NCBI GenBank assembly: GCA_963662585.1
Contig: OY759729.1
Location: 96,001 to 160,000, forward strand
Direction: 5' to 3'
Source: Candidatus Cloacimonadales bacterium
Lineage (GTDB): Bacteria; Cloacimonadota; Cloacimonadia; Cloacimonadales; JAFGVF01
DNA length: 64,000 bases
Part shown: positions 45,604 through 63,198 of the stretch, piece after piece
Layout: every line of letters begins with the position of its first letter
Numbering within the stretch: the stretch's first letter is position 1
Program-made: the position numbers and the translations under genes
The notes under the pieces: generated by a model
Database searches by the model: none
Seen by the model: only the letters and a program-made list of their open reading frames with translations
What the model was told of the DNA's origin: nothing

Positions 45604-45780
45604 AAAACTGGGAACACCTACTACTGCAGGCAATACCTTACACATGAATTAACGCGAAAGTAGGGGCCTATTGCCATAAGCATTTAGAATCTCACGGTTT
45701 TTGAATTCATAAATCTTCCACAAGTGAGGATTCAGGGGATGATTATTCTAGGATAGCCTAGGGTAATTATCCCCTATTTT
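45604..45780. ncRNA. Candidate structured RNA, 6S-like
   Basis: GC-richer ~177-nt intergenic block whose ends pair into a long irregular helix, with internal hairpin GAATCCTCAC/GTGAGATTC and CCCCTGAA/GCCTGC words reminiscent of 6S RNA; strand unresolved. Confidence 0.4.
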
Positions 45781-45812: not shown

Positions 45813-45829
45813 TAATTTGAACAACATTC
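45813..45829 (+). repeat. Left 17-bp target site duplication
   Basis: TAATTTGAACAACATTC, identical to 60760-60776. Confidence 0.9.
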
Positions 45830-47406
45830 CAGGCATACCCCCAAAAAACTTTGATATAATATAGTGAACTTTCAGTTTTATAGTAAGTTAGATATAAAAA
45901 TTGTCTAAAAAGATTGATTTATAGGTATTACGAATAAACTTAAACTTTTCTATTAAAATTACGAGAAAGCTTGCAAACAAGGCTAATATTAAGACACTTT
46001 TAGAAATAGTATAACTAATTGATAGATAATAAAATAAGAAAAATAATCCTTGCAAAAAAAGTGCTCCTAAATACAATTAGATTATCTACCAAATAATTTC
46101 TAAAAAAGCACTTTAACAATGGATTTAAAAAAACAGAATATAATAAAATTACAAGGTAAATTTTCAAAAAGAGTAAAAAAATATTCAGAAGGCTTAACTA
46201 TTCCTGAGCATAAAGCCTTGAAAGATATAACGAAAGGAGTCATTTCAAGTAGCTCGGTTATTGTTCGACAAATAGCAACAAGTTTACATGAAAAAATTAG
46301 TTTAGATAAAGTATGTGAGAGATTATATAGAAACCTAAAGAATGAGAAAATTGGAAAAGTGGTAAGTGAAAATTTGTTAAAATACAACAGTGCAAAAGCT
46401 ACCAATGACACATATTTTATAGTTGATGAATCAGATATATTGAAGCCAGAATCAAATAAGTTAGAAGGACTATCAAGAGTTAGAGATGGTTCTACTGGAC
46501 AAAGAGCGAAAGGTTATCATTTACTTAATATTGCATCACTAACAGATAATGGTAAGAACTATTCAATACTCCCAATATGCAGTCAATTATATAGTAATAT
46601 TATAGAAGAAGATACTTCTAAGAATATACTTGAAGATAGAATTATAGATATTACTATTCACAGTAATAATAAAGGTATTTTTGTGTTTGATAGAGGTTAT
46701 GATAGCCGTAAGTTAATAACTTTACTTTCAAATAATGAAAATAACTATATAATTAGAAGTACAGGAAGAGATCTTTTATTGAGGATAATACCGAAGTTAG
46801 CTTTTCATCAGTAGTAAGACAAATTAAACTTAAACATGAGTTTAAAACATCTGATAATAAAACTTTTAATAGCGGAACAAAGAGAGTGAAAATAATAATT
46901 AATCCACATAAACTTAAGCATCCAGATATAGTTGAAGCAAACTTAGTTGTTGTAAGGCATGGTAAAAAAGGAGGCTTGTTTTATTTTCTATGTAACTTTA
47001 ATGATAGCACAATGACAGATTATGAAATAATATTAAAAGCTGTTAAAGGATACAGAAAAAGATGGAAAATCGAAGAGTTCCATAGACATATCAAGCAGGA
47101 GTTTAATTGGGAAAAAGTTCAGCTGATGTCTGATGTAGGATTGAAAAATATTAATGTTATATTAATGGTGGCAGTAGATATAGTTTATTCTACAATAAAA
47201 TATCTGGAAGAACTTTTATATCAATTCCCTGAGTTCGGTAGCACTAATTATAAGAATCATACCTATGTCTATTACAAACTGAGTAGAATCATAAAGCACA
47301 TATTTAATAACACTAAATTGAATAAAATTATACCGCACAAGGGGGAATATCATGACAAGCTACAACTACGGATCAATTTCTTATAAAAATAATGGGGGTA
47401 TGCCAG
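45830..47406 (+). mobile_element. IS4-like insertion sequence, copy 1 (1,577 bp)
   Basis: Terminal inverted repeats CAGGCATACCCCCA / TGGGGGTATGCCAG (13/14 match); DDE transposase inside. Confidence 0.92.
46119..47386 (+). pseudogene. IS4-like DDE transposase, frameshifted
   Basis: IVDES, VFDRGY and YRKRWKIEEFHR (YREK) motifs; 1-nt deletion near 46765 (ACAGGAAG versus ACAGGTAAG in copy 2). Confidence 0.9.
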
Positions 47407-47552
47407 CAATCTTTTTAATAATCTTCTTGACAATGATTCTTTATATTCAATAATTTTTGTTAAGTACATAAAATTATTAAAACAGTTTTAGTAAAAATAG
47501 TATATATTAAACAAAATGAAAATATTTAGAGTTATAAATCAAGGAATTAATT

Positions 47553-48749
47553 ATGAGAAAAACTGCTTATGGTCATCCTATTCAAGTAAAGAATGGTAAG
47601 GTAACTTTACTTTCCCAAGTCACTGCAATTAATGAAGCCTCAATTCAAGACCTTGTCTTTAAATACCCTTCCTGCTTACCAATTAGTGAAATTGATGAAT
47701 CTTTCAATCCAGTATTATCAGTTTGTACAGAACTTCACACACCAGTAGGTCCTCTTGATATATTGATGATAACTCCTAGTGGGAAGATAGTGATTATTGA
47801 AACAAAGCTATGGAAAAACCCTCAAGCGAGGAGAGAGGTTGTTGCTCAAATTCTTGATTATGCTAAAGAGTTATCTAAATGGACTTATGAAGATCTCCAA
47901 AGAGAGGTTAATAAGCGTTTAGGGAAAAGTGGTAACATATTGTATGAAATAGCAAGTAAATCTGATTCAAACGAACTGCTTAACGAATCTGATTTTGTTG
48001 ATTCAGTAAGCAGAAATCTTAAAAAAGGTAATTTTTTATTATTAATAGTTGGTGATGGTATTCGTGAAGGTGCTTCCGGTATTGCTGAATTCTTAGTTGC
48101 ATCAGGTTACATGAATTTTACTTTTGCCATGATTGAGCTTGCAATATACCAAAATGAAGAAATTGGAGAAATACTTCTTCCAAGGGTTATTACTAAAACT
48201 GTGGAAATTCAAAGACTAACTATAGATATTCCAGATGGTTTAGTTCTTAGTAATTCAACAATATTACAAGATAACTCACTGAAATCAGAAAATGATATCA
48301 TTAAAGATAAAGAAAGTCAATACCGCTATAACTTTTGGTCAGATTTAGTTTCTCAGATAGAATTCGATGATCTAGGCCAGCCACTCCCAACCCCAACCTA
48401 TGGCTATAACTTATTTGTTTACCCTAGTGAAACAAGAAAAGTATGGATCAGTGCCTACTTCATGACTAGTAAGAACAGAGTCGGAGTATATCTTCAATGT
48501 AAAAACGATGCAATGGGACAAAAGTATTACGATATTTTAGAATCATATTCAGATGATATTAAAAATGATTTAGGCGAAGTAATAAATTGGAGAGCCTACG
48601 AAAGAGATATTGCCTCAGTATGGATACCTTGTGATGACATTTATAGTCCAATAAATCGAGAAATGTTGATCAAGTTTTTCAAGCATTGGTTAAATGCATT
48701 TGTTAATACATTTAGACCAAGGATTAAAGAAATTGAAAGAGATTCTTAG
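47553..48749 (+). CDS. NucS/RecB-like PD-(D/E)xK nuclease with DUF4268-like C-terminal domain
   Basis: ELHTPVGPLDIL...IIETKL...VVAQILDYA (D, ExK, QxxxY); C-terminal YNFWSDL...IKNDLGEVINW...F.P.I pattern. Confidence 0.7.
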   Translation: MRKTAYGHPIQVKNGKVTLLSQVTAINEASIQDLVFKYPSCLPISEIDESFNPVLSVCTELHTPVGPLDILMITPSGKIVIIETKLWKNPQARREVVAQILDYAKELSKWTYEDLQREVNKRLGKSGNILYEIASKSDSNELLNESDFVDSVSRNLKKGNFLLLIVGDGIREGASGIAEFLVASGYMNFTFAMIELAIYQNEEIGEILLPRVITKTVEIQRLTIDIPDGLVLSNSTILQDNSLKSENDIIKDKESQYRYNFWSDLVSQIEFDDLGQPLPTPTYGYNLFVYPSETRKVWISAYFMTSKNRVGVYLQCKNDAMGQKYYDILESYSDDIKNDLGEVINWRAYERDIASVWIPCDDIYSPINREMLIKFFKHWLNAFVNTFRPRIKEIERDS

Positions 48750-48858
48750 TTTGGTGAGAAAATATATCTAACAAGATTTTAAAACTTACTAAATATTGCT
48801 TCTAAGTGAAGGTGATTTTTGTATATTTACCTTCAAAACGAACCAGAAGGGGAAATCT

Positions 48859-48963
48859 ATGAATGTGCAAGACTTCTTTATTAAGCATAAAGGCTATGCC
48901 AGAATGAAGGATTTAAAAGAAAATAAGTTCCATACTAGAGTCATTACAGAGGCTGTAGAATAA
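48859..48963 (+). pseudogene. Truncated second copy of abiEi (34 codons) with its upstream region
   Basis: 48785-48950 aligns with 57288-57455; MNVQDFFIKHKGYARMKDLKENKFHTRVI versus MNVQDFFGKHNGYARMNDLKENGFHTRVI. Confidence 0.85.
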
Positions 48964-49093
48964 ATCCTAAGCCTTGTTTTTTTGTCTATGATCCGATGTT
49001 GGACAACTTTTTTGTCAAATTCTAATGCCTGTAACAACTAAGGATATAATACCAAAGAACTTATCAAAGTAAGGATTTGTTGTTAGGAATAAA

Positions 49094-49149
49094 GAAAAAT
49101 ACTCCTACCCAGGGCAAAAGCTATATGCAATGTTACCTTGAGTAAGAGT
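49094..49149 (-). terminator. Terminator-like hairpin after the 1181-aa gene
   Basis: Minus strand ACTCTTACTCAAGGTAA...TTGCCCTGGGTAGGAGT then ATTTTCTTT; pairs with G-U only on the minus strand. Confidence 0.55.
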
Positions 49150-49202
49150 GAAAAATTAAATGATTATAATCTTGTAATGATAGAAGATTAGAGATTCAAT
49201 CT

Positions 49203-52200
49203 TTATTTACTATTAGTCTTAATCTGATATTTCTGAATATTGTTTATCCTTCTAATCATTCCACTATTAGCCCTAATCTTAAAAAACAATTTATCCGCAT
49301 ATTCTACTACATCAGGTAATTCAAGATATGATTCGTTAACTGTTCCGATTAAGGAGTCAAAATTACATTCAAAATCCGGATAATCTCCTACATAAACTTC
49401 ATAATAACTTATTACTATATTATTACCGAAAATATCAACAGCTACATCATCCCAATCTAAGATTATAAGACCTTCTGAAATTTCTACTGTTAGGTTGTCT
49501 GGAGTTTCCGGAGGAGCTGAAGAACTTGTCATTGCAGTAATAATTTCAGGATATTCGAAACTTCCTCCAATTCCATCAAGAGCAAGTAGCAAGAAATAGT
49601 AGCGAGTTCCCGGATTTAACCCTGATATTGTAGTGCTAATCAACTCTGAGTTTGGATTGGACATATTTGAATCATTATTCCAATCCCAGTTGGAATCTGA
49701 AGTATTCACATCTGGAAGAGTTGAATAATGAATTCTATAACGTAACAGGCTTATATTAGCTACTGTTTCCCAAGCAAGTTGAACTGTTGAATCAGCTACT
49801 TCTTGAACAAAAAATGTTGTTATTTCTGCAGGAGGCAGAGTAGAGATCCTAACCACCCAATCATCATCAACACCTTCTTGAGAATTCACACCACTATATC
49901 CAATATTACCATAAATATCTGATGCTTTAAACTCGAAAGGTAGAATTCCGTCTGAGTCGAAAGTAACCTCAAAGGAAAGATTTACCTCATCTCTTTCGTG
50001 AATAATTCTTGTTGAATCAGGTATAAGAAGCCATAATTCTGTCTCATCATAAATCCCATTCCCATTATAATCAATACGATAATTCATACTACCAATATTG
50101 ATGCTGCTTAAATCATTGATACTACAACCTATTTGTACTGTGCGTGAATTTTGCCAAACCGGTTCAGGTTGAAGTTGAGGTATCGGACTCGACAATATCG
50201 GAGATTGATTATCGATATGAAATAGAATAGATTCTGATAGGTTAGAATAATTATTACTTTGATCTATGGCCCTTATAGTTATCCAATAATCTCCATTATC
50301 CAAATCCGTAATTGTTGTTTGGGTAGTAGTAATATAAAATAAGCTTGAATCTTGTTCGACTGACCACATTAGATCTTCAATATTTACTTCTGCATCTTGA
50401 GAAAGATATAGCTCATATCTTTCAAAATATGTTTCAGAACTTTGCTCCCATGATAAAGTTGCACTGTGAGAAGTTTGGGAAATTAAAGATAATCCATTAA
50501 CTGGGTTAGGAGGATCATTATCAAGAAAATCACCATAAATGTTAAAATCTTCAATATCCCAATAATTGTCCTGTCCGGTATTCACAGTATTATTACCATA
50601 AATCCACCTGAACTTTACATTAGATTTCCCTGTTAAGCCGGGGAGTAAGTATGATTTCATCTCATTATGTTGACTTGTATAAGTTTCAACTACTGTATAT
50701 GTTATATTGTTTAGGGTGTAAGCAAAAGAACCTTGACCATTGCTGTATGGTAGAAAATCAGAATTGAAGGAAATTGTAATATTTTGAAAATTACTAAAAT
50801 TATAGTTAGGGGATAATAAACGTTCATTTGCAGTTTTACCTGTATTTACCATAACCTGTAATTTATAATCATCACCTTCATCTAAAATAGCCTGCCATGG
50901 ATAATCTGTAGAACCATAATGTGAGACTGACCAGCCTTGTGGAATGTTTCCTTCATTATCAAAATCCTCACTTGTTTCTAATGTTTGAACAACTGTAACT
51001 CGAAGTACTTGCTCAACATAACCCAAATCATTACTTACTCTTATTGTTATGTATTCGGTTCCATACCAATCTGTAGTTGGTTCTAAACTTAAAATACTCC
51101 CACCTAAAACAGTTGTTGAAATCATAGTGTTGCCTGTGAAAGTATAGGAGAGTTTATTACCAGCAAAGAATTCGTCTAAATCTATACTTTGATTGATTGT
51201 ATTCCAATGTATATGTAGGTTCTCTAAATTGGTAGTAATTGTTGGAAATTCAATCATTGGGTCTGGTTTATTGTATAACGATAGTATTTCATCATTATCT
51301 AAAACTCTATCATAAACTCTTAAGTCATCAAAGTAACCTATAAATTGTTGGGATTCTTCCCAGCTACCGCCCACTACATCTTGGTCATTACCAATATATA
51401 GACCATTTTCAGCAATATTGGTAGTACCTTGATCAAAGGTGAAGCTATCTTCTTGATTACCATTTATAAATAGACTAAAGAGACCTGTTTGAGCATCTCT
51501 AGTACATGCTACATTTACCCATTGATTAATTGGTACATAGTAAGATGTTTCATATATTTCACCCTTAATATGAAGTTTTATATGTTGAGATTCCACAAAG
51601 ATTAAATACTCATTCTCATGTTCGTTTGATGCTCCTGATATGAGACCATAAGTTTGCACTGATGGATTAATCCAAAAAGAGACTGTGGAATTATCTAAAC
51701 CATCTAGTACTTGATAAGGTAATTCAATTGTCTCGAGGTAACTTGAGAACTGATATGCATTGTTTTCATTTTGAAATCTATCTGCAGTAGGGCTAGGTCC
51801 ATCTACTGAACCATGATATTCATTCCCACTCTCATCGGTTGCATTACCATCAAAAGGATAATAAGCAACTAGTCCGTGATCTAAAGGTTCAACTACTCGG
51901 ATATAGTTTTCGTTAGTAATAGAATCATTGTCTTCGTCCCACCAAGTTGTAAGAGTAACATCATATTCTCCAATTTGAGAATAAATCCATGTAGGATTCT
52001 CTTCAGTAGAATCAATTATTCCATCTGAGTCGAAATCCCATTCCCATGAAGTTGGTGTTCCTGTTGAAGTATCTTCAAACTGAACTTGTAAAGGTAAACA
52101 TCCTTGTGTAACATTTGAAGTGAAACCTGATGTTAAACCAACAGAAGTTTCAACTTGAATATAATCAATATATCCTTTCATTTCATAATTCCATGTCTCT

Positions 52201-52748
52201 GAAAACATCTTGATAGATATTTCATTATTTTCGTCACTAATATCCGAAGAACCACTTTCGATTAGTTCTCCATCTATGTAAGCCCAATAAAAGTCATTAA
52301 ATTCTTCTAACCTATAAACATGCCAGTTCCCAGCTTGTACTTGTAAAGTTATAGGAGTTGAATCTTCTTCTCCTACAGTAAAACAATCATCAGTTAGGTG
52401 GAAATTATATCCTACGAAATCAATGTTCTTATTACGAACATTAAAATGAACCACACGGGTAACTTCTGTATATAGTATTCTAGCTTCAATAGCAATTGCA
52501 TTTTCTGATGGAAAATTTGGTATCTGCGTCTTAATCCAATTCCAATCAGAATTCATATACCACACTGAATCTCCATTATATGAAGTTATACCTTGTCCTC
52601 CAGCTGCCCCATTAGCTGCATACCATCCTTGAGCTTGGCCATCCTCAAAATCTTCTATGTATGTAACATCCCATTCGAAGTCTTCACAATGAAAAATACT
52701 AACATAAAAGATTGAAACCAACAAAGTAATAAATATTTTTTTGATCAT
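49203..52748 (-). CDS. Secreted PKD/LamG/FN3 multidomain protein
   Basis: Signal peptide, N-terminal ConA-like domain, PKD (SWEWDFDSDG), LamG (GLVAYYPFDGNA..DRF..DDLRVYDRVL), several FN3 domains; GAGGAGG RBS. Confidence 0.85.
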   Translation of the reverse strand: MIKKIFITLLVSIFYVSIFHCEDFEWDVTYIEDFEDGQAQGWYAANGAAGGQGITSYNGDSVWYMNSDWNWIKTQIPNFPSENAIAIEARILYTEVTRVVHFNVRNKNIDFVGYNFHLTDDCFTVGEEDSTPITLQVQAGNWHVYRLEEFNDFYWAYIDGELIESGSSDISDENNEISIKMFSETWNYEMKGYIDYIQVETSVGLTSGFTSNVTQGCLPLQVQFEDTSTGTPTSWEWDFDSDGIIDSTEENPTWIYSQIGEYDVTLTTWWDEDNDSITNENYIRVVEPLDHGLVAYYPFDGNATDESGNEYHGSVDGPSPTADRFQNENNAYQFSSYLETIELPYQVLDGLDNSTVSFWINPSVQTYGLISGASNEHENEYLIFVESQHIKLHIKGEIYETSYYVPINQWVNVACTRDAQTGLFSLFINGNQEDSFTFDQGTTNIAENGLYIGNDQDVVGGSWEESQQFIGYFDDLRVYDRVLDNDEILSLYNKPDPMIEFPTITTNLENLHIHWNTINQSIDLDEFFAGNKLSYTFTGNTMISTTVLGGSILSLEPTTDWYGTEYITIRVSNDLGYVEQVLRVTVVQTLETSEDFDNEGNIPQGWSVSHYGSTDYPWQAILDEGDDYKLQVMVNTGKTANERLLSPNYNFSNFQNITISFNSDFLPYSNGQGSFAYTLNNITYTVVETYTSQHNEMKSYLLPGLTGKSNVKFRWIYGNNTVNTGQDNYWDIEDFNIYGDFLDNDPPNPVNGLSLISQTSHSATLSWEQSSETYFERYELYLSQDAEVNIEDLMWSVEQDSSLFYITTTQTTITDLDNGDYWITIRAIDQSNNYSNLSESILFHIDNQSPILSSPIPQLQPEPVWQNSRTVQIGCSINDLSSINIGSMNYRIDYNGNGIYDETELWLLIPDSTRIIHERDEVNLSFEVTFDSDGILPFEFKASDIYGNIGYSGVNSQEGVDDDWVVRISTLPPAEITTFFVQEVADSTVQLAWETVANISLLRYRIHYSTLPDVNTSDSNWDWNNDSNMSNPNSELISTTISGLNPGTRYYFLLLALDGIGGSFEYPEIITAMTSSSAPPETPDNLTVEISEGLIILDWDDVAVDIFGNNIVISYYEVYVGDYPDFECNFDSLIGTVNESYLELPDVVEYADKLFFKIRANSGMIRRINNIQKYQIKTNSK

Positions 52749-52798
52749 AATACCTCCTCGAATCTAAAAATTCCTTGTTATATTTATAATGTTTTCAA

Positions 52799-53452
52799 TT
52801 ATGTAACAGGTAACAGAAACATTTTAGAATGCTTTTCTTCTACCTTAATCCTAATTACCCCATTTATTCTTTTCCGTCCTGGATGAAATGGATTTCCTTG
52901 CTTTGAGAGCCCATCTTTCCCATGATATGAAAAAGCATAAATATTTTCTTTATCTATTAGTTTATGTAAAAGGTGATTAACTTCACTTTGATGAATGCTC
53001 TTCTTAAACTTAGACGGGTTATCTCCATAAGCCAAAATTATTTTATCTGCACTTTTCACCAACTCATCACCTTTATCCCTATTCTTAGCTAATTCATCTT
53101 GAAATAAAGAATCTTGACTATTAGAATCGAAGATTTGTCTAAGATTACTTGATTCAGGTTCAGAGAATGGAAATAAGTTAGATACAGTAATTTCTTTAGC
53201 CTGATTAAATTTCGGGCATTCATAAATATATTTAATTACAGAATTCATAGTGTTATCAGAATTGTCTTTCCCTGCTTTTGAAGGGTTCATCATTATGAGT
53301 TGAATAGTTTCTGATTTATTTTCTCTACCTTTTAATGGGATAGTTAAAAGACTCCTAACCCCGAGTAATTCATTACATTGAATTTCTTTAAACTCTACAT
53401 AGATTCTACTTTTATCAACATATTCTTCTTTATAATCGATATTTCTATTCAC
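52799..53452 (-). CDS. DUF1643-family protein
   Basis: IMMNPSKA, DNT, SNLFP, ILAYG and GNPFHP motifs; GTG start with AAGGAG. Confidence 0.75.
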   Translation of the reverse strand: MNRNIDYKEEYVDKSRIYVEFKEIQCNELLGVRSLLTIPLKGRENKSETIQLIMMNPSKAGKDNSDNTMNSVIKYIYECPKFNQAKEITVSNLFPFSEPESSNLRQIFDSNSQDSLFQDELAKNRDKGDELVKSADKIILAYGDNPSKFKKSIHQSEVNHLLHKLIDKENIYAFSYHGKDGLSKQGNPFHPGRKRINGVIRIKVEEKHSKMFLLPVT

Positions 53453-53673
53453 AATTGCTTGCTCCTTTTATACATTTCAAAAAATTTAATCCATTAAGAG
53501 TATTTATCATATAAATTACTGCTACTATTATTTAAAATATTTTTCCCAAAACTAATTTTATTAATAAACTTTTAGAGATTATATGTCAAGGAAAAATTTA
53601 TAATTTTCTTATTTAACTTAATGGAGACTGTTAAAATTATTATATTGAGTTAAGTAAACTGTCATTCCGCCCA

Positions 53674-54612
53674 ATGAAAAACGATGGAAGCTCTGATATC
53701 TCAGTGAGATTAGAGAATGAAACTGTTTGGTTAACCATAGACCAAATGGCAGAACTCTTTGATAAAAGTCGTTCTACTATCAACGAACATATTCTAAATA
53801 TCTATAAAGAAGAAGAGCTATTGAAAGAAGATACAATAAGAAAAATCGGAAATTCCGATTTTTCTACTAAACCTAATAATTTCTATAACTTAGATGTTAT
53901 TATTTCAGTAGGTTATAGAGTTAAATCAGTCCAAGGAACTCGTTTTAGGCAATGGGCTACTAAAAGACTAAAAGAGTATATCGTAAAAAGATTCGCTTTA
54001 GATGACCAACGCTTAAAGATTTAGGTGGAGATAACTATTGGAAAGAATTACTTGATAGAATTCGAGATATACGAAGTAGTGAAAAAGTAATGTATAGGCA
54101 AGTTTTAGAGCTTTATGCTACTGCAGTTGATTACACTCCAAAAAGTGAGGAAAGTGTTATATTTTTTCAAATAGTTCAGAATAAATTACATTTTGCAGCT
54201 CACGATAACACTGCAAGTGAAGTTATTTATTTACATGTTGACAGCAACTAGCCTTTTGCTGGACACACAAATTTTAAGGAGAACACCCAACTCAAGCCGA
54301 AGCTATGATTGCTAAAAACTATCTATCAATACAAGAATTAAAAGTGTTGAATAATCTTGTATCAGCTTATTTTGATCTAGCAGGGTTAAATGCTATAGAA
54401 GAAAAAGTAATGACAATGTCTGATTATGTTCGAGAGTTGGATAACATTCTCTCATCGGCAGGTCGTAAGATACTAATAATTCTGGTTCTGTGTCTTCTCT
54501 GGAAGCTAAAACAAAAGCAAAAACTGAATATAAAAAATATAAAGCTAAAACGTTAGAAAGTGTTGAGAAAGAATATCTAAATACTATAAATTCTATAGAA
54601 AAAAAATGCTAA
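53674..54612 (+). pseudogene. RhuM-family protein, degraded
   Basis: ETVWLT, YNLDVIISVGYRVKS..GTRFRQWA, RIRDIRSSEK, VQNKLHFA and IAKNYL; frameshifts near 54018, 54278 and 54475 and a TAG at 54249. Confidence 0.9.
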
Positions 54613-54670
54613 ACTTAGTAGCCATAGAAACAAAAAAAATAAAGGCTTTAAAAGACCTGAAATTATTGAA

Positions 54671-54781
54671 AAGAATGGAGTTGATCTATCTTTACTCATG
54701 AGGGTATTTAACCACTCCTCCTAAGCTCTCTATATCGGGATTACTCAAGATCAGATTGATGATGTTTATGTAAATTTGGAT
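54671..54781 (+). pseudogene. C-terminal fragment of a small tyrosine recombinase
   Basis: Manual translation KNGVDLSLLMRVFNHSS*ALYIGITQDQIDDVYVNL, with box II His and the catalytic Tyr region; not in the ORF track. Confidence 0.8.
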
Positions 54782-54846
54782 AAGATTTTACAATTTATAA
54801 GTCATTTTCACTGATGTGAGAAAGTGAACTTTATAATAGAGTTATA

Positions 54847-54930
54847 TTGATGGAGTTTTTCCAGAAATGGTTGAATACATTTGTTAATGCTATTCGTCCA
54901 AGGATTAAAGAAATTGATAGAGATATGTAG
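54847..54930 (+). pseudogene. 3' remnant of a paralogue of the 47553-48749 nuclease gene
   Basis: LMEFFQKWLNTFVNAIRPRIKEIDRDM* versus LIKFFKHWLNAFVNTFRPRIKEIERDS*. Confidence 0.85.
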
Positions 54931-54984
54931 TTTTGTGAGATAATGTAAAGAAATATTCAAACTGTTATAGAATATTAAATTTCT

Positions 54985-55026
54985 AAGTCCTTCTAGATCT
55001 CAATATCAAGAAGGACTTATTTTTTA
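54985..55026 (+). terminator. Rho-independent terminator
   Basis: AAGTCCTTCT/AGAAGGACTT perfect 10-bp stem followed by ATTTTTT. Confidence 0.65.
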
Positions 55027-55079
55027 TTCCCCTCTTCATTTCTGTTAGGCAATATTAAAAAGAGGGTAGGTAATTTGAA

Positions 55080-55445
55080 TTATTTAATTACAATTATTTG
55101 GACCATATCTATAACATAGTCAGAGAGGAAGATATAATCTTCATAACTTTGTTCATTTCTACCCCACAGTTCCAATATGAATTTTCTAACATTCTCCGAC
55201 AAGTGAAACTGTTTGGTCTTCCTCGTCTTCTTCTCCCTGATAGAAATAGCCTCTCTGAATAATGGTTCATCTCCTGCTTGACTGAAAACAGAATTCCATT
55301 TGAGATTCAGAATATCTGATATTCTCAATCCAGTCTTATTCCCAATTTCAAATAATACTAATTCTTTTAGTTTCCCTTCTTTCCTCATTAACTTCTTAAT
55401 CCTATCAATTTTCTTAACTTCTCTAATTGGTTGAACATAATTCAT
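55080..55445 (-). pseudogene. N-terminal half of a small (catalytic-domain-only) tyrosine recombinase
   Basis: MNYVQPIR, TGLRISDILNLKW (box I) and IREKKTRK; truncated before HxxR. Confidence 0.85.
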
Positions 55446-55825
55446 ATATTATCCTTATAGATTACTTATTGAGCTAATATGCTCGATTTGTAATATAAAA
55501 AAGCTGATACCGATTACTTGAATCGGCATCAGGCTTCTAATCAGCTATATAAATTATGTTTATGAATTGAGATTTTACTTCAATTAACATATTTGTGTAA
55601 AGTAATTTTGGATAGAGCAAAGCATTTGCTTCCGTTAGACTGGACAATATTGTAAGTTGTCAGGAGGCGAATATTTTTATTGACACTTTCTGAAATTAGT
55701 AAAGAATGGATGTGTTGGATAGTAATATAGATTGCTTAGTTACAAGAAGCCCTTACAAAGAACAATGCATGAACTTCATACATGTAAAATACGATTAACT
55801 AAAACTTAAAAATTAGGAGTGAAAA

Positions 55826-56863
55826 ATGGTGAAGAAAGTAATAAATGGGATTGAATACAAACTTCCTAACAAATTATCTAGATTTCAAGAAAAAATGTAT
55901 GTTAACCTTATAGATTACAAGTGGAAACATATAACAAAAAAGCCTGGTATATATAAATATAAAGGTTTGGATATTGAATATGATGTTATTTTACCTGAAT
56001 CTTCAAGGTGTGATTTTCCATTGATTTATTCACCAATATTACCCGTTCTAAAACAACACCGCCAAATGTATAATTTTAAGTTACATATCCATTTTAATCA
56101 TATGGCAAGTTCCCAAGCAGCAAATGTTAACCTATTTCTTCCAATACTTTCATCACCAAAAGCAAATGATATTTTAAGCTTGTTAAAGAAAGATTTCAAT
56201 AGATTAGCAACATCTGAGTTATATAAAGGATTTCGCATAGAATATTGGGATGGCAATTCAAAAGGAGACGAAGGCTTATTGGGTGACCATAACGCAAACT
56301 CTGGCACCGATAGTGATATAGCAATTGCTTACTACAATCATGAAGATGAACTATGTTTATGGTTAATAGAGCATAAACTAACCGAATCTGAATTTACTAC
56401 TTGTGGTGGTTTTAAGAGTAAGGGTAGAGACAAATCAAAACATCTATGCAATAAATCATATACTGAAATTTTAAGCAACAAAAACTTATGTTATTATCAA
56501 GATGTCAAAAAATATAATTATTGGAACATTACGGACACACACAAAAACTACTTTGTAAATAATAGTACTATACCAACATGCCCATTTCAAAAGGGTATGA
56601 ATCAATTGTGGAGAAATCAATTGTTAGGATTTGCTGTAGAGAATAGTAAAGATAATGATTTCAAAAATGTTTTCTTCTCTGTAGTCCATCATCCAGATAA
56701 TCATTCTTTAGATAAAACAATTAATAATTATAAAAACTTGATTAATAACAATCTAAAATTTTCATCATTTACATCAAAGGATGTAATTGATAAGGCAACA
56801 ACTATAAAAGACCAAGGAATTTCAGATTGGATAAAGTGGTATAAAGAGTTGTATAATATTTAG
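55826..56863 (+). CDS. PGN_0703-like putative restriction endonuclease (PD-(D/E)xK)
   Basis: HMASSQAANVNLF, IEYW, GTDSDIAI, LIEHKLTE, CPF..GMNQLWRNQLL; AGGAG RBS. Confidence 0.7.
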   Translation: MVKKVINGIEYKLPNKLSRFQEKMYVNLIDYKWKHITKKPGIYKYKGLDIEYDVILPESSRCDFPLIYSPILPVLKQHRQMYNFKLHIHFNHMASSQAANVNLFLPILSSPKANDILSLLKKDFNRLATSELYKGFRIEYWDGNSKGDEGLLGDHNANSGTDSDIAIAYYNHEDELCLWLIEHKLTESEFTTCGGFKSKGRDKSKHLCNKSYTEILSNKNLCYYQDVKKYNYWNITDTHKNYFVNNSTIPTCPFQKGMNQLWRNQLLGFAVENSKDNDFKNVFFSVVHHPDNHSLDKTINNYKNLINNNLKFSSFTSKDVIDKATTIKDQGISDWIKWYKELYNI

Positions 56864-56924
56864 AATCTCCCACGATAGAGCTGTAAAGCTCCTATGAACA
56901 GCAGATTTTTTTTCCAGATTAGAA

Positions 56925-57070
56925 CTCGAATTATGCATAAACTAAACTTTATAGAAAAATGGGGTACTGGTATTAATCGTATCTTAACTTCTTGAGAAAA
57001 TAGAGGCCTTAAAAAACCTGAAATTATTGAAAAGAATGACTTCTTTGAAGTGAAACTATTTAAACCAAAA
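56925..57070 (+). pseudogene. Fragment of a RecG-C/HATPase_c_4 (AlbA-type regulator) gene
   Basis: Manual translation RIMHKLNFIEKWGTGINRILTS*ENRGLKKPEIIEKNDFFEVKLFKP. Confidence 0.7.
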
Positions 57071-57310
57071 GAAGATTCTTTAGTTAATAATAACAAAATT
57101 ATTGAATCTCCACGGTCGATTACGGACGATTAGAAAAGGATAAAGCAAATTACAGTGAAATTTCCTAAGTCTTTAATTTCCTATTTCGAAAGCATTGACT
57201 TGCATAGATATTTGATTCAAAATGATATTAGTATAATGACTGGCAGTTTAGTTTTGATTTAGAAAATATCTCTTTACAAGATATTCTACTTACTAAATAT
57301 TGGTTCTAAG

Positions 57311-57339
57311 TGAAGGTGGTTTTTGTATATTTACCTTCA
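57311..57339. promoter_or_regulatory. Inverted repeat upstream of abiEi, candidate autoregulatory operator
   Basis: TGAAGGT-N15-ACCTTCA, also conserved at 48807-48835. Confidence 0.55.
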
Positions 57340-57362
57340 AAACGAACCAGAAGGGGAAATCT

Positions 57363-57956
57363 ATGAATGTGCAAGACTTCTTTGGTAAGCATAATGGCTA
57401 TGCCAGAATGAACGATTTGAAAGAGAATGGATTTCACACCAGAGTTATTGCTAAAGCTCTGAGTGATAACATTATTGAAAAAGTTAAACCAGGACTTTAT
57501 AAGCTAGTAGATTATGAGTGGGATGAGAATAGTAGCTTTGTTGATATTACTAAAGTAAACTCCAAGGCAGTAATCTGTCTAAATTCTGCCCTACATTACT
57601 ACAATCTCTCGACAATAAACCCTAATCTTGTACATGTTGCTGTTCCAAATAATACAGCAAGGTTTTCTCTTGATTACCCTCCAGTAAAGCTATTCTATTT
57701 CTCTGATACAATATATCCACCAGAAATAATTGAAATTAAAGGGTCTAATGGTTCTTTCAAAATTTACTCGATAGAGAAAACAATCTGTGATGCTTTTAGA
57801 TATCGTAAAAGAATAGGAGAAGATCTTGCTCTTGAAGCACTAAAGAATTATATGAGAAGAAAAGAATCAGATCTAAATAGACTTTATAAAGTAGCTAAAG
57901 AGTGTAAGATTGATAAAGTTATTGAACCATACATTAAAGCAATGGTGATTGAATGA
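57363..57956 (+). CDS. abiEi: Type IV TA antitoxin AbiEi
   Basis: wHTH (IEKVKPGLY), SALHYYNLS and YSIEKTICDAFRYR; ATG 57363 after AAGGGG; overlaps the toxin start. Confidence 0.9.
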   Translation: MNVQDFFGKHNGYARMNDLKENGFHTRVIAKALSDNIIEKVKPGLYKLVDYEWDENSSFVDITKVNSKAVICLNSALHYYNLSTINPNLVHVAVPNNTARFSLDYPPVKLFYFSDTIYPPEIIEIKGSNGSFKIYSIEKTICDAFRYRKRIGEDLALEALKNYMRRKESDLNRLYKVAKECKIDKVIEPYIKAMVIE

Positions 57957-58855
57957 TGGCTAAGAATATAGCATCATCAGTAAGAGCTAGACTGTTAGTT
58001 ATAGCAAAAAAAAGTAACCGTGATTTTAACGCTGTTTTGTTGCAATACTTTCAAGAAAGATTCTTATATAGATTATCAATTTCAGAGTCTAAAGAGAATT
58101 TTGTTCTAAAAGGTGCTATGCTTTTTAGGATATATGAAATGCCAGCATCTCGTCCTACTTTAGACATAGACTTCCTATGTAGAAATACTGATAATTCTGA
58201 AGAGAATCTGAATTCGTTAATAAAAGAGATTCTATCAATTGAGTGTAATGATGGGGTAACATTTGATGGTGACTCTATAAGCTCAGAAATTATCAAAGAA
58301 ATTGATGAGTATCAAGGAGTCAGAATATTCTGCCTAGCTTATTTAGGTAAAGCTAAAACCAGACTTCATTTTGATATAGGTTTTGGAGATAAAGTTTTTC
58401 CAGATCCAGCATTATTAGAATTCCCTGTTCTACTAGAAGACCTGCCAATCCCTAAGATCATAGCATATTCACCAGAAACAGCCATTGCAGAAAAGTTTGA
58501 AGCAATTGTGTCATTAGGAATATTCACTAGCAGACTGAAGGATTTCTTTGATATCTACTATATGTCTCAAAACTACAAGTTCTCTTCAGATAACTTAAGA
58601 GAGGCAATCATGATTACCTTTGATAATAGGGAGTCGGATATTAGCAACAGAAATTTTGTTTTCTCGGACGAATTCAAACAGGATAAGAATAAAAGGCAAC
58701 AATGGAAAGCATTTTTAAACAGAATAAGTTCAGAGATTCCATTATCATTTGGTGAGTGCCTTGAATATATTGAGATCTTTTTAGAACCAATTCTAACTGA
58801 TGAGTTAGATGATTATCTTTGGGACAGAGACGGTTTAAAATGGTTAAAGAAATAA
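57953..58855 (+). CDS. abiEii: Type IV TA toxin AbiEii nucleotidyltransferase
   Basis: ERFLYRLS, FVLKGA, RPTLDIDF, AEKFEAI and SRLKDFFDIY. Confidence 0.92.
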   Translation: MMAKNIASSVRARLLVIAKKSNRDFNAVLLQYFQERFLYRLSISESKENFVLKGAMLFRIYEMPASRPTLDIDFLCRNTDNSEENLNSLIKEILSIECNDGVTFDGDSISSEIIKEIDEYQGVRIFCLAYLGKAKTRLHFDIGFGDKVFPDPALLEFPVLLEDLPIPKIIAYSPETAIAEKFEAIVSLGIFTSRLKDFFDIYYMSQNYKFSSDNLREAIMITFDNRESDISNRNFVFSDEFKQDKNKRQQWKAFLNRISSEIPLSFGECLEYIEIFLEPILTDELDDYLWDRDGLKWLKK

Positions 58856-59182
58856 TGTTTTTTTCGAAATGTGTTCTTTGCTAAATTACTCATTCACCTT
58901 GAAGCTTTGTTAACTACATCATCACAATCAGTGATATTTAAGCCACCTCAGCAACCATCTTTATATCTTATATAATTCTTTCAGATTAGTGTTGTTTTTA
59001 TCAATATTTATTTTTTATCATGTTTAAGTTATAAGTAAAGAGACAAATAACATGTCTTATAACATTTTTTTGAAAAATTATTTATATTTACCAAAAGAAA
59101 AACGATGAGGAATGTAATTTATCATATTCTAATCAAAGAGATGTTGTATTTCTTTCTTGGGTACAGAAAATTAATGATAAAA

Positions 59183-60759
59183 CAGGCATACCCCCAAAAA
59201 ACTTTGATATAATATAGTGAACTTTAAATTTTATAGTAAGTTAGATATAAAAATTGTCTAAAAAGATTGATTTATAGGTATTACGAATAAACTTAAACTT
59301 TTCTATTAAAATTACGAGAACGCTTGCAAACAAGGCTAATATTAAGACACTTTTAGAAATAGTATAACTAATTGATAGATAATAAAATAAGAAAAATAAT
59401 CCTTGCAAAAAAAGTGCTCCTAAATACAATTAGATTATCTACCAAATAATTTCTAAAGGAGCAATTTAACAATGAATTTAAAAAAACAGAATATAATAAA
59501 ATTACAAGGTAAATTTTCAAAAAGAGTAAAAAAATATTCAGTAGGCTTAACTATTCCTGAGCATAAAGCCTTGAAAGATATAACGAAAGGAGTCATTTCA
59601 AGTAGCTCGGTTATTGTTCGACAAATAGCAACAAGTTTACATGAAAAAATTAGTTTAGATAAAGTATGTGAGAGATTATATAGAAACCTAAAGAATGAGA
59701 AAATTGGAAAAGTGGTAAGTGAAAATTTGTTAAAATACAACAGTGCAAAAGCTACCAATGACACATATTTTATAGTTGATGAATCAGATATATTGAAGCC
59801 AGAATCAAATAAGTTAGAAGGACTATCAAGAGTTAGAGATGGTTCTACCGGACAAAGAGCGAAAGGTTATCATTTACTTAATATTGCATCACTAACAGAT
59901 AAGGGTAAGAATTATTCAATACTCCCAATATGCAGTCAATTATATAGTAATATTATAAAAGAAGATACTTCTAAAATATACTTGAAGATAGAATTATAGA
60001 TATTACTATTCACAGTAATAATAAAGGTATTTTTGTGTTTGATAGAGGTTATGATAGCCGTAAGTTAATAACTTTACTTTCAAATAATGAAAATAACTAT
60101 ATAATTAGAAGGACAGGTAAGAGATCTTTTATTGAGGATAATACCGAAGTTAGCTTTTCATCAGTAGTAAGACAAATTAAACTTAAACATGAGTTTAAAA
60201 CATCTGATAATAAAACTTTTAATTGCGGAACAAAGAGAATGAAAATAAGAATTAATCCACATAAACTTAAGCATCCAGATATAGTTGAAGCAAACTTAGT
60301 TGTTGTAAGGCATGGTAAAAAAGGAGGCTTGTTTTATTTTCTATGTAACTTTAATGATAGCACAATGACAGACTATGAAATAATATTAAAAGCTGTTAAA
60401 GGATACAGAAAAAGATGGAAAATCGAAGAGTTCCATAGACATATCAAGCAGGAGTTTAATTAGGAAAAAGTTCAGCTGATGTCTGATGTAGGATTGAAAA
60501 ATATTAATGTTATATTAATGGTGGCAGTAGATATAGTTTATTCTACAATAAAATATCTGGAAGAACTTTTATATCAATTCCCTGAGTTCGGTAGCACTAA
60601 TTATAAGAATCATACCTATGTCTATTACAAACTGAGTAGAATCATAAAGCACATATTTAATAACACTAAATTGAATAAAATTATACCGCACAAGGGGGAA
60701 TATCATGACAAGCTACAACTACGGATCAATTTCTTATAAAAATAATGGGGGTATGCCAG
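59183..60759 (+). mobile_element. IS4-like insertion sequence, copy 2 (1,577 bp)
   Basis: Same terminal inverted repeats and near-identical sequence to 45830-47406. Confidence 0.92.
59472..60739 (+). pseudogene. IS4-like DDE transposase with frameshift and nonsense mutation
   Basis: 1-nt deletion near 59974 (CTAAAAT versus CTAAGAAT) and TGG>TAG at 60461. Confidence 0.9.
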
Positions 60760-60776
60760 TAATTTGAACAACATTC
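60760..60776 (+). repeat. Right 17-bp target site duplication
   Basis: TAATTTGAACAACATTC, identical to 45813-45829. Confidence 0.9.
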
Positions 60777-60779
60777 CTA

Positions 60780-60807
60780 TTGACATCTTTCACCTTAAAA
60801 TTATCCT
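60780..60807 (+). promoter_or_regulatory. Putative sigma70 promoter of the carboxypeptidase gene
   Basis: TTGACA-N16-TATCCT, then GAGGAG RBS before ATG 60844. Confidence 0.4.
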
Positions 60808-60843: not shown

Positions 60844-63198
60844 ATGAAACAGAGATTTTTTTTACTTATAGTTCTATTACTCACAACTATTATCAATATT
60901 TATGGTATTGACTACACTGAATACTACTTCCAAGTACCTTACGAAAGCAAGAAGATGATCAATGAACTTAATGAGATTTGCTCTGTAGACAATTTTAACG
61001 ACCAATTTGTCTATGCTTATGCAAATCCTAAGCAATTTATTGAAGTTACCCAACGCTTTCCTAATTTTAAGTTATTAACCAACCCTTCTTCCGAATTCAA
61101 TATCGAAGTTGCTCAAAGCAGAAATGAAATGAGAGAATGGGATTCATATCCTAGTTATTCTACTTATGTAGAGATGATGAATCAATTTGCGATCGACTAT
61201 CCAAATCTTTGCACAGTAGAGAGTATTGGTACTTCTGTAGATAACAGAGAGTTGTTAGTTGCTAAAATTTCAGATAATGTTAGTATAGAAGAGGCTGAAC
61301 CAAAGTTCTTTTATTCTGGGCAAATGCACGGTGATGAGATAGTTTGTTCCATTCTTTTCTTAAGATTAATTGATTATTTATTATCCAACTATGGTACTGA
61401 TCAAGAAATAACAGACATTGTTAATAATACTCAGATTTTTATTAATCCTTTGTCAAATCCTGATGGCTTATACACAGATAATGATAACACTATTAATGGT
61501 GCCACACGCTACAATGCCAATGGTGTTGATTTAAACAGAAATTTTCCTGCTCCTACTGGTGATGATCACCCAGATGATAATGCTTGGCAAGTAGAAAATA
61601 TCGCAATGATGGACTTTGCTTCCCAACATAATTTTGTGATGTCCTCTAATTCTCATAGTGGAGCTGTAGTAATAAATTATCCTTGGGATACTTGGTCTCG
61701 GCTTCATACAGATGATGCCTGGTTTCAATTCGTAAGCAGAATCTATGCCGACACCGTACATGAGAATGCTCCTTCTCCCTATATGACTGATTTTGAAAAT
61801 GGGATTACAAATGGTTATGCTTGGTATCAAACTTTGGGAAGCAGACAGGATTGGTTTAATTATGAAAGAAATTGTCGAGAAATTACTATTGAGCTATCGT
61901 TTAATAAAACAGTGCCAGCTAATCAACTCAATGCTCACTGGGATTATAACTATCAAGCAATGATAGAATGGCTAAAACAGGTTAATTATGGTATTAAAGG
62001 TATAGTTACTGATAATTCAGGAAATCCTGTTGAAGCAAAAATTGAAATATTAGACCATGATCTTGATCAAGATAGATCTTTTGTCTTCAGCTCTCCCCTC
62101 TTAGGTGATTATTATAGACCAATCATTGCTGGTAACTATAGTGTTAAATTTTCAGCTGAAGGCTATGAGTCACAGATAATTGAAAATGTAGAAGTTGCAA
62201 ATAATTCTAGTACAGAAGTGGATGTAATATTAAATGAATCTATAGTTACTTCTTTTACAGGCTATGTTTATGACATGGATTCTAATCCAATCAACAATGC
62301 AACTATTATTTTATCTGATTTATCTGTACATGAAACAAATAGTGATGCAACAGGATATTTTCAGGTCTCACCTCTTTACAGTGGTTCATATAATTTAACT
62401 GTTTCAGCTCCAGGCTATCAAAGCGTTTATCAAAATGTAACTGTTTCAGAGAATTCAGAAGCTGTATCTTTCTACTTAGCTGAATCTACTGCTATTAGTT
62501 TTGAAAATGAACTTAGTACAGATTGGTATTCGACATCTTCAGCTACTTGGACAAGAAATAATGAGGAAGCTTATGATGGAAATTATTCCTTGAAATCAGC
62601 TTCTATTGGCAATGAAAGTAGCACGAATATTCAAATAGAGCTAGAGACTCAGCAATCAGTAATTTCCTTCTATTACAAAGTTTCATCTGAGGAAGGATAC
62701 GATTATTTTAACTTTTACATTAATGATAATATTATCTCAACTTGGAGTGGAGAAGTTGATTGGAGCTATGTTGAATATCCAATTTCAGCTGGTTTAAATA
62801 CTTTCAAATGGGAATACGCCAAAGATCAATCCGTTCAAGAAGGAAGTGATTGTGCTTGGATTGATTTTGTTCAATTACCAAGCTTAACTGATAATGAGAT
62901 TAATGAGGATATTGCTGAGCTTGTAACTCCTCTTACTTGTTATCCTAATCCTTTTAACCCAGAAATTAATATTAGATTTTATCAATCAAAGACTAACCCT
63001 ATTCCCAAAATTACTATTTATAATATCAAAGGACAAAAAGTTACTGAATTTAATGATATATCTTCTGATTCCGGCTATCATACTATAATTTGGAAGGGTG
63101 AAGATTCTAATCAAGTAAAAGTAGCATCAGGAATATATTTCGTGATTTCGGATAATGGGATCAAGAAACAAACAAATAAAATAGTATTAATGAAGTAG
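60844..63198 (+). CDS. Secreted M14 zinc carboxypeptidase (N/E subfamily, CPG70-like) with C-terminal FlgD/T9SS-like domain
   Basis: Signal peptide, MHGDE, NPDG, DLNRNFP, NSHSG, GSRQDW, ITIELS; two carboxypeptidase-regulatory repeats; CYPNPFNP..IYNIKGQKV..W.G.D..VASGIYF. Confidence 0.92.
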   Translation: MKQRFFLLIVLLLTTIINIYGIDYTEYYFQVPYESKKMINELNEICSVDNFNDQFVYAYANPKQFIEVTQRFPNFKLLTNPSSEFNIEVAQSRNEMREWDSYPSYSTYVEMMNQFAIDYPNLCTVESIGTSVDNRELLVAKISDNVSIEEAEPKFFYSGQMHGDEIVCSILFLRLIDYLLSNYGTDQEITDIVNNTQIFINPLSNPDGLYTDNDNTINGATRYNANGVDLNRNFPAPTGDDHPDDNAWQVENIAMMDFASQHNFVMSSNSHSGAVVINYPWDTWSRLHTDDAWFQFVSRIYADTVHENAPSPYMTDFENGITNGYAWYQTLGSRQDWFNYERNCREITIELSFNKTVPANQLNAHWDYNYQAMIEWLKQVNYGIKGIVTDNSGNPVEAKIEILDHDLDQDRSFVFSSPLLGDYYRPIIAGNYSVKFSAEGYESQIIENVEVANNSSTEVDVILNESIVTSFTGYVYDMDSNPINNATIILSDLSVHETNSDATGYFQVSPLYSGSYNLTVSAPGYQSVYQNVTVSENSEAVSFYLAESTAISFENELSTDWYSTSSATWTRNNEEAYDGNYSLKSASIGNESSTNIQIELETQQSVISFYYKVSSEEGYDYFNFYINDNIISTWSGEVDWSYVEYPISAGLNTFKWEYAKDQSVQEGSDCAWIDFVQLPSLTDNEINEDIAELVTPLTCYPNPFNPEINIRFYQSKTNPIPKITIYNIKGQKVTEFNDISSDSGYHTIIWKGEDSNQVKVASGIYFVISDNGIKKQTNKIVLMK

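Follow-up and report, generated by a model that had tools for sequence, protein, structure and literature searches.

A 14.9-kb block bounded by direct copies of an IS4-type element and a 17-bp target duplication in Candidatus Cloacimonadales: a probable compound transposon

Introduction

The locus described here raises the question of whether a block of 14.9 kb, which carries defence-type genes between two copies of one insertion sequence (IS), was brought to its present site as a single unit. The block lies in a window of 64,000 nucleotides (the whole stretch of DNA that was analysed, 64 kb), which covers positions 96,001 to 160,000 of contig OY759729.1 from a Candidatus Cloacimonadales bacterium, and it sits between ettA, the gene for an ABC-F protein, and a gene for an M14 carboxypeptidase. 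A first-pass annotation, made from the sequence, had proposed that the block is a composite transposon, built from two direct copies of an IS4-like element and marked by a perfect 17-bp target duplication at the outer IS ends only. The simplest reading of the data presented in this study is that the 14.9-kb block did move as one compound (composite) transposon, and we put the probability of that reading at roughly 0.6. The type of element is familiar and its host unusual, and the feature that sets it apart is the 17-bp duplication.

Results

The target duplication and the two IS copies

The block and its borders consist of the following parts. The IS copies were delimited by region alignment, sequence reading and translated comparison, and the 17-mers by pattern search and sequence reading.

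45813..45829, no strand: left copy of the 17-bp target duplication
45830..47406, plus strand: IS copy 1, 1577 bp
47407..59182, no strand: cargo between the IS copies, 11,776 bp
59183..60759, plus strand: IS copy 2, 1577 bp, oriented as copy 1
60760..60776, no strand: right copy of the 17-bp target duplication

The 17-mer TAATTTGAACAACATTC was found at exactly two sites in the window, 45813-45829 and 60760-60776, with up to two mismatches allowed, and two or more matches were obtained in 0 of 100 shuffles. The left 17-mer directly abuts the first base of IS copy 1, which starts with CAGGCATACCCCCA at 45830, and the right 17-mer directly follows the last base of IS copy 2, which ends with TGGGGGTATGCCAG at 60759, so that the whole unit measures 14,930 bp. 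Outside the unit, the target site has GCATCATGC to the left of the 17-mer and CTATTGACATC to the right of it. At the inner junctions, the right end of copy 1 is followed by CAATCTTTTT and the left end of copy 2 is preceded by GATAAAA. The inner flanks are unrelated to each other, with CAATCTTTTTAATAATC to the right of copy 1 and GAAAATTAATGATAAAA to the left of copy 2 being identical at 9 of 17 positions, and they are not repeats of the 17-mer either (9/17 and 7/17 identical). The perfect duplication at the outer IS ends only, as first proposed, was therefore borne out. The base that follows the right 17-mer (60777) is a C, as is the base with which the IS begins, and a duplication of 18 bp is formally possible; it was counted as 17 bp because the C is common to both IS copies and the other IS end carries the complementary G. 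When folded as DNA the target site had no notable structure (z = -1.0). The observation of an IS-bounded block with a 17-bp duplication is confirmed as real and cleanly bounded.

Alignment showed that the two IS are direct copies of one element, as the first-pass annotation had it, with 98.7% identity (18 mismatches and 2 one-base gaps over 1578 columns). The IS boundaries given there also stood, except that the right end of copy 1 is 47406 and not 47407. In copy 1 the left inverted repeat (IRL) occupies 45830-45843 and the right one (IRR) 47393-47406, and the two are complementary at 13 of 14 positions, the IRL being CAGGCATACCCCCA and the IRR, read inward, CTGGCATACCCCCA. Short terminal inverted repeats, in most cases with 5'-CA at the start, are what is expected of the IS4 family (PMC2266710). 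The 12-base core of the IS ends occurs at four sites in the window, all of which come from these two copies. Neither transposase gene is intact: the frame of copy 1 (46119-47386) is disrupted by a one-base deletion near 46766, and that of copy 2 by a one-base deletion near 59975 and by a TAG stop at 60461-60463 (codon 331).

Two further observations were made on the IS copies. First, a leader of 289 bp (45830-46118 in copy 1 and 59183-59471 in copy 2), which is unusually long, separates the left IS end from the transposase start, and it holds 6 of the 18 substitutions between the copies. Second, the DNA to the right of the two copies (47407-47432 and 60760-60785) is alike at 16 of 26 positions, and the hexamer TTGACA stands 20-21 bp from the right IS end in both cases (at 47427 and 60780). 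A likeness of 16/26 was reached by 0.045% of random 26-mer pairs from the window, a post hoc comparison with n = 2. One possible cause of this likeness is that the IS favours targets just upstream of promoters.

The transposase and its relatives

The first-pass annotation had called the transposase IS4-like, and this is supported by the spacing of its catalytic residues, by a motif and by its predicted fold. In its intact relatives the transposase is a DDE protein of 422 amino acids encoded in a single reading frame, as in the IS4 family. One of these intact versions, P0123, has the catalytic residues D103, D191 and E319, separated by 87 and 127 residues, distances that lie within the D(60-110)D(100-150)E pattern by which PMC2266710 defines that family. 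It also has a complete Y(2)R(3)E(6)K motif, YRKRWKIEEFHRHIK, at residues 312-326 (Y312, R315, E319 and K326). All six residues (D103, D191, E319, Y312, R315 and K326) are conserved without exception across an alignment of 32 relatives whose identity goes down to 24%.

The Pfam family DDE_Tnp_1 was matched with 37.5 bits, above its cut-off of 23. None of the NCBIfam IS models reached its cut-off on P0123, the scores and cut-offs being 57.1/250 for IS4_4, 50.9/160 for IS4_3, 48.7/250 for IS701_2 and 28.2/100 for IS1634. A structure predicted from the 32-sequence alignment had a predicted local distance difference test (pLDDT) score of 88.8 and a predicted template modelling (pTM) score of 0.87. 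The top five matches of this model in the PDB were all Tn5 transposase, with E from 1.4e-14 to 2.3e-13 and template modelling (TM) scores of 0.60-0.68, and the best of them were 1mm8_A and 3ecp_A (E about 1e-14, TM 0.67-0.68). A search of the PDB by sequence with the transposase returned nothing relevant.

An exhaustive search gave 1118 representative proteins at E <= 0.001, of which 78 were at E <= 1e-30, and the transposase clade is not a small one. In the plasmid collection no match to the IS DNA was found, and the intact transposase had one weak match there, on a Deinococcus plasmid (23.6% identity). The protein cluster of the transposase has 16 members, 15 of them listed. The four transposase fragments of the window are exact matches to four cluster members on a Cloacimonadota contig of 3,296,030 bp (3.30 Mb), and at least four other versions lie on the same contig, namely three differing intact 422-residue versions (P0123, P0125 and P0130) and the 330-residue P0133. 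Intact transposases therefore exist in the same genome as a potential source in trans. Two further versions (P0121 and P0129), among the members listed, lie on a related contig of 3,119,857 bp.

In a table of variable sites, two derived residues, L266 and D339, set both window copies and P0125 apart: R266 and Y339 were found in the six remaining close copies of the table, with P0133 scored at position 266 only, and in the outgroup P0003, which is 78% identical. Both window copies thus fall into a single sub-lineage of the IS and are close relatives among the copies in this genome. P0133 ends at the codon of the copy 2 stop, yet it has R266 and belongs to the other sub-lineage. The common stop at codon 331 could be a recurrent change from TGG to TAG or the product of gene conversion between copies.

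Comparison with a related genome

Presence of the cargo in the related 3.12-Mb genome was assessed by exact protein-cluster look-ups against the 3,119,857-bp contig. Ten proteins were queried, nine of which are in the collection, and none of the seven cargo proteins had a cluster member on that contig. Among the flanking proteins a member was found for 8 of 11 (ettA, the carboxypeptidase and nine of ten further proteins queried), and the difference between cargo and flanks gave a one-sided Fisher p of 0.004. Both immediate flanks are present on the contig, with ettA about 100% and the carboxypeptidase 99% identical. One of the three misses among the flanks was a false negative, in that the 99% identical carboxypeptidase had been filed in a separate "90%" cluster. 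Because the look-up misses a protein as similar as this, the count of 0/7 for the cargo is taken as suggestive and not as proof. Both flanking genes are thus present in the related genome, and the cargo, which looks accessory, is probably absent from it by this indirect test.

Movement of the block

The block has two of the marks of a compound transposon: two copies of one IS enclose passenger DNA, and a duplication is found at the outer ends with none around each IS. The presence of the 17-mer at the outer junctions only, together with the unrelated inner flanks, is what would be expected if the outer ends had been used together. In the proposed course of events, two direct copies of the IS4-like element would have come to flank 11.8 kb of accessory DNA at an earlier site. 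A transposase, supplied by either flanking copy while it was still intact or by another copy in the genome, would then have brought together the left end of copy 1 and the right end of copy 2, excising the whole 14.9-kb block. By analogy with Tn5 and Tn10, and judging from the fold and motifs of the enzyme, this excision would have been of the cut-and-paste kind and would have passed through DNA hairpins. The block would have been joined into the spacer between the terminator of ettA and the promoter of the carboxypeptidase gene, presumably with staggered cuts of 17 bp, and repair of the gaps would have produced the 17-bp duplication. Later, independent frameshifts and a stop codon would have inactivated both flanking transposase genes. 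Since both genes have decayed, the unit should now be mobile only with transposase supplied in trans.

Several points weigh against this reading. Movement in one step is inferred from a single pair of junctions, and the same structure arises when a lone IS inserts and recombination follows later. Both transposase genes of the unit are broken. The cluster look-up used for the comparison above under-reports and can miss near-identical relatives. A degenerate pattern of both IS ends matched three loci in the genome-contig collection, all without IS homology outside the pattern by blastn and tblastn and attributable to chance, which shows that no genome in the scanned collection carries these exact IS ends. 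Finally, the duplication of 17 bp, known from one event, falls outside the 7-13 bp that Table 1 of PMC2266710 gives for the IS4 subgroups.

The alternative that survives best holds that a lone IS made the 17-bp duplication and that the cargo arrived later on a circle with an IS copy of its own, which recombined homologously with the resident IS. Such a circle would have been a plasmid, or a looped-out segment that once lay between two IS copies at another place. We consider this route unlikely, though it is a serious contender, as its end product is identical to the structure observed. Suitable substrates exist, since the same contig bears at least four more versions of this multi-copy IS, and two copies that are 98.7% identical over 1577 bp are good recombination partners. 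Pseudo-compound transposons of the IS26 type likewise have direct IS copies around their passengers and a duplication on the outside only, and this structure can form when an IS-bearing circle joins a resident IS. However, IS26 (IS6 family) uses its own transposase for a targeted reaction, whereas the equivalent route here needs host homologous recombination. A survey of the IS1202 family explains IS copies that lack direct repeats by recombination of a similar sort (bioRxiv 10.1101/2022.12.17.520857). The recombination route was nevertheless ranked below the compound transposon because it needs more steps: two insertions at the donor site, excision, a separate solo insertion and integration. 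In its simplest form, with a circle whose IS carried a duplication of its own, it also predicts identical inner flanks; as these agree at 9 of 17 positions, that form was rejected. The form in which two independent IS copies gave rise to the circle by looping out survives this comparison. No chimeric IS copies were seen in the variable-site table, although that table has little power on this point.

An assembly artefact, in which a solo IS lies at this site, the cargo lies between IS copies elsewhere and the assembler took a wrong path through the repeat, is improbable. It would be favoured by the origin of the 3.30-Mb contig, which is probably a metagenome assembly as the lineage is an uncultured one within the Cloacimonadota, and by the multi-copy nature of the IS, many relatives of which are the only occupants of contigs of 1.5-2 kb, as is usual for collapsed repeats. 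However, the two copies differ at 18 positions and by 2 indels and carry distinct disabling mutations, and therefore they can be told apart by reads; moreover, the contig is a single piece of 3.3 Mb. Even if the assembly were wrong here, the 17-bp duplication by the IS would stand.

An island integrated by a tyrosine recombinase, with the 17-bp repeats as attL and attR cores and the IS copies as later arrivals, is very unlikely indeed: the cargo does hold a fragment of such a recombinase, and 17-bp direct repeats are reported to flank genomic islands of integrase-driven elements, but this fragment is internal, has 121 residues and lies about 4 kb from the nearest end of the cargo, the Rfam and tRNA scans detected neither tRNA genes nor any other RNA genes in the window, and two independent later IS insertions would not abut the repeats exactly. 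The attL/attR interpretation was accordingly rejected, as at both ends the repeats meet the IS termini without a single intervening base.

The insertion site

The site lies between ettA and the carboxypeptidase gene, in agreement with the first-pass annotation, and its surroundings are as follows.

43911..45590, plus strand: ettA-type ABC-F protein, 559 amino acids, left flank (Pfam ABC_tran twice and ABC_tran_Xtn)
45734..45775, plus strand: terminator-like hairpin 3' of ettA, a 19-pair stem followed by a T run, 37 bp before the left 17-mer (by consensus scan only)
60780..60807, plus strand: promoter-like site, TTGACA, 16 nucleotides, TATCCT (by consensus scan only)
60844..63198, plus strand: M14 carboxypeptidase with a Por_Secre_tail sorting domain, 784 amino acids, right flank (Pfam)

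The closest named relatives of ettA are EttA proteins of Candidatus Cloacimonadales and Cloacimonadota, at 91% identity and below. The promoter-like site begins 4 bp after the right 17-mer and ends 37 bp before the carboxypeptidase start. The position of the insertion, between a terminator-like hairpin and a promoter-like site, fits an event that would have disrupted nothing. Just to the left of ettA, a single open reading frame of 7256 amino acids runs from 21417 to 43187 on the minus strand, and PKD-like stretches in it are 32-38% identical to the 1181-residue protein of the cargo.

The cargo

The G+C content of the cargo is 0.29-0.33, the same as that of the flanks. It contains the following genes and gene fragments.

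47553..48749, plus strand: protein with a NucS-like N-terminus and DUF4268, 398 amino acids, candidate defence gene (Pfam DUF4268 E 2.8e-12, weak NucS_C; PADLOC PDC-S11 E 1.2e-13)
48796..48957, plus strand: partial second AbiEi gene, residues 1-54, with 83% identity to the full-length AbiEi (tblastn)
49203..52748, minus strand: protein of 1181 amino acids with PKD, LamG/pentraxin-like and fn3 domains, of surface or secreted and non-defence type (Pfam; no PADLOC match)
52799..53452, minus strand: DUF1643 protein, 217 amino acids (Pfam E 5e-15)
53674..54556, plus strand: RhuM-family gene in at least two frames, pieces of 116 and 83 amino acids (Pfam Virulence_RhuM 17-68 and 167-222 of 252; PADLOC PDC-S05)
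54835..54924, plus strand: partial second DUF4268 gene, C-terminal 30 residues, with 67% identity (repeat and translated comparison)
55080..55445, minus strand: truncated tyrosine recombinase, 121 amino acids, profile positions 8-100 of 172 (Pfam Phage_integrase E 2.2e-9)
55826..56863, plus strand: PD-(D/E)XK nuclease of the REase-ARP type, 345 amino acids (Pfam REase-ARP E 1.1e-20, PDDEXK_13 E 1.5e-13)
57300..58855, plus strand: AbiEi (57300-57956) and AbiEii (57953-58855), with a 4-bp overlap and both full length (PADLOC, Pfam)

AbiEi was matched by PADLOC with E 1.7e-57 over profile positions 7-197 of 198, and AbiEii with E 8.4e-94 over positions 6-279 of 294; the Pfam family AbiEii was matched with E 1.6e-44. 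This adjacent pair of full-length genes is predicted to form an AbiE system (type IV toxin-antitoxin, abortive infection). The cargo had been described at first as a defence-rich island, and that label is half true. It holds for the intact AbiEi and AbiEii genes and for three nuclease-type or candidate-defence genes. It does not hold for the largest gene, which is of the surface type with LamG, PKD and fn3 domains, or for the RhuM gene, the tyrosine recombinase, the second AbiEi and the second DUF4268 gene, all of which are wrecks.

Diverged partial duplicates were seen within the cargo at 48654-48957, 54835-54947 and 57248-57449. One DNA repeat (48746-48945 and 57248-57449, 87% identity) covers an intergenic region and the 5' end of the AbiEi gene, and the 3' end of the DUF4268 gene is duplicated at 80%. 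These duplicates look like two related DUF4268-AbiE modules that were recombined or interrupted. Between the two copies of a 42-nucleotide direct repeat (54636-54677 and 56997-57038), which are 93% identical and 2361 bp apart, lie the fragments of the DUF4268 gene and of the recombinase together with the REase-ARP gene. The frames around this repeat may resemble the C-terminus of regulators of the AlbA_2/HATPase_c_4 type.

Discussion

The element found here is an IS4-type IS with a Tn5 fold and an out-of-range duplication, seen once, in a compound transposon with direct IS copies. It was compared with Tn5 and Tn10, which are built on IS50 and IS10 of the IS4 family. As in those transposons, two IS4-type copies surround the passengers, the duplication lies outside the whole unit, and the transposase has the DDE triad together with Y(2)R(3)E(6)K; the predicted fold here is in fact matched best by Tn5 transposase. 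However, there are several differences. The IS copies are direct here and inverted in Tn5 and Tn10, the duplication is 17 bp rather than 9 bp, and the passengers are defence-type genes and wrecks rather than resistance genes. In addition, both transposase genes are dead here, the host belongs to the Cloacimonadota, and no NCBIfam IS4 model is reached at its cut-off. In the library of papers searched, none mentioned both Cloacimonadota and the IS4 family.

The early remark that 17 bp is long for an IS4-type element proved correct. The IS4 family has seven subgroups, for which Table 1 of PMC2266710 gives target duplications of 7-13 bp, while IS701, ISH3 and IS1634 have duplications of 4-6 bp according to the same source. 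It also describes exceptional duplications of 8-514 bp, variable between copies, for IS1634 and IS1549, which are IS4-related and resemble the present case in the length of their duplications (PMC2266710). Members of the IS1634 family, however, mostly lack the R of YREK and have long spacers between D and E, whereas R315 is invariant here and the spacer is 127 residues.

Direct repeats of 15-17 bp are made by the ISTde1 subgroup of the IS1202 family (bioRxiv 10.1101/2022.12.17.520857). The IS1202 elements described there have 5'-TGT ends and a Q at position E+7, whereas the present IS has ends of 5'-CAGG and 5'-CTGG, K326 at E+7 and a Tn5-like fold. Membership in IS1202 or its ISTde1 subgroup was rejected on the termini (CAGG/CTGG) and on the residue at E+7 (K326). 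Beyond the ISTde1 subgroup, no other IS group with a regular duplication of 15-17 bp was found in the literature searched. A literature search for 17-bp duplications turned up mostly integrase att sites and eukaryotic elements.

The length of the duplication in IS4 elements tracks the geometry with which the transposase dimer captures its target. If an enzyme with a Tn5 fold does make duplications of 17 bp, it would offer a natural contrast for structural work on target capture, though the significance of this length rests on a single event. We suggest only tentatively, and at somewhat less than even odds, that a 17-bp stagger is the rule for this IS clade, which would then be a new Tn5-like subgroup (IS4-type, with a full YREK motif) that cuts about 1.6 helical turns apart rather than about one. 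The clade may also prefer sites about 20 bp upstream of a TTGACA box.

Compound transposons are textbook elements in Proteobacteria, and nearly every discussion of them treats them as vehicles for resistance genes. Here the passengers of the same architecture are an AbiE module and other defence-type genes, and the host belongs to an uncultured phylum of anaerobic digesters. If the compound-transposon reading is true, such elements would move defence genes between sites in Cloacimonadota, and they would be one more route by which defence islands relocate.

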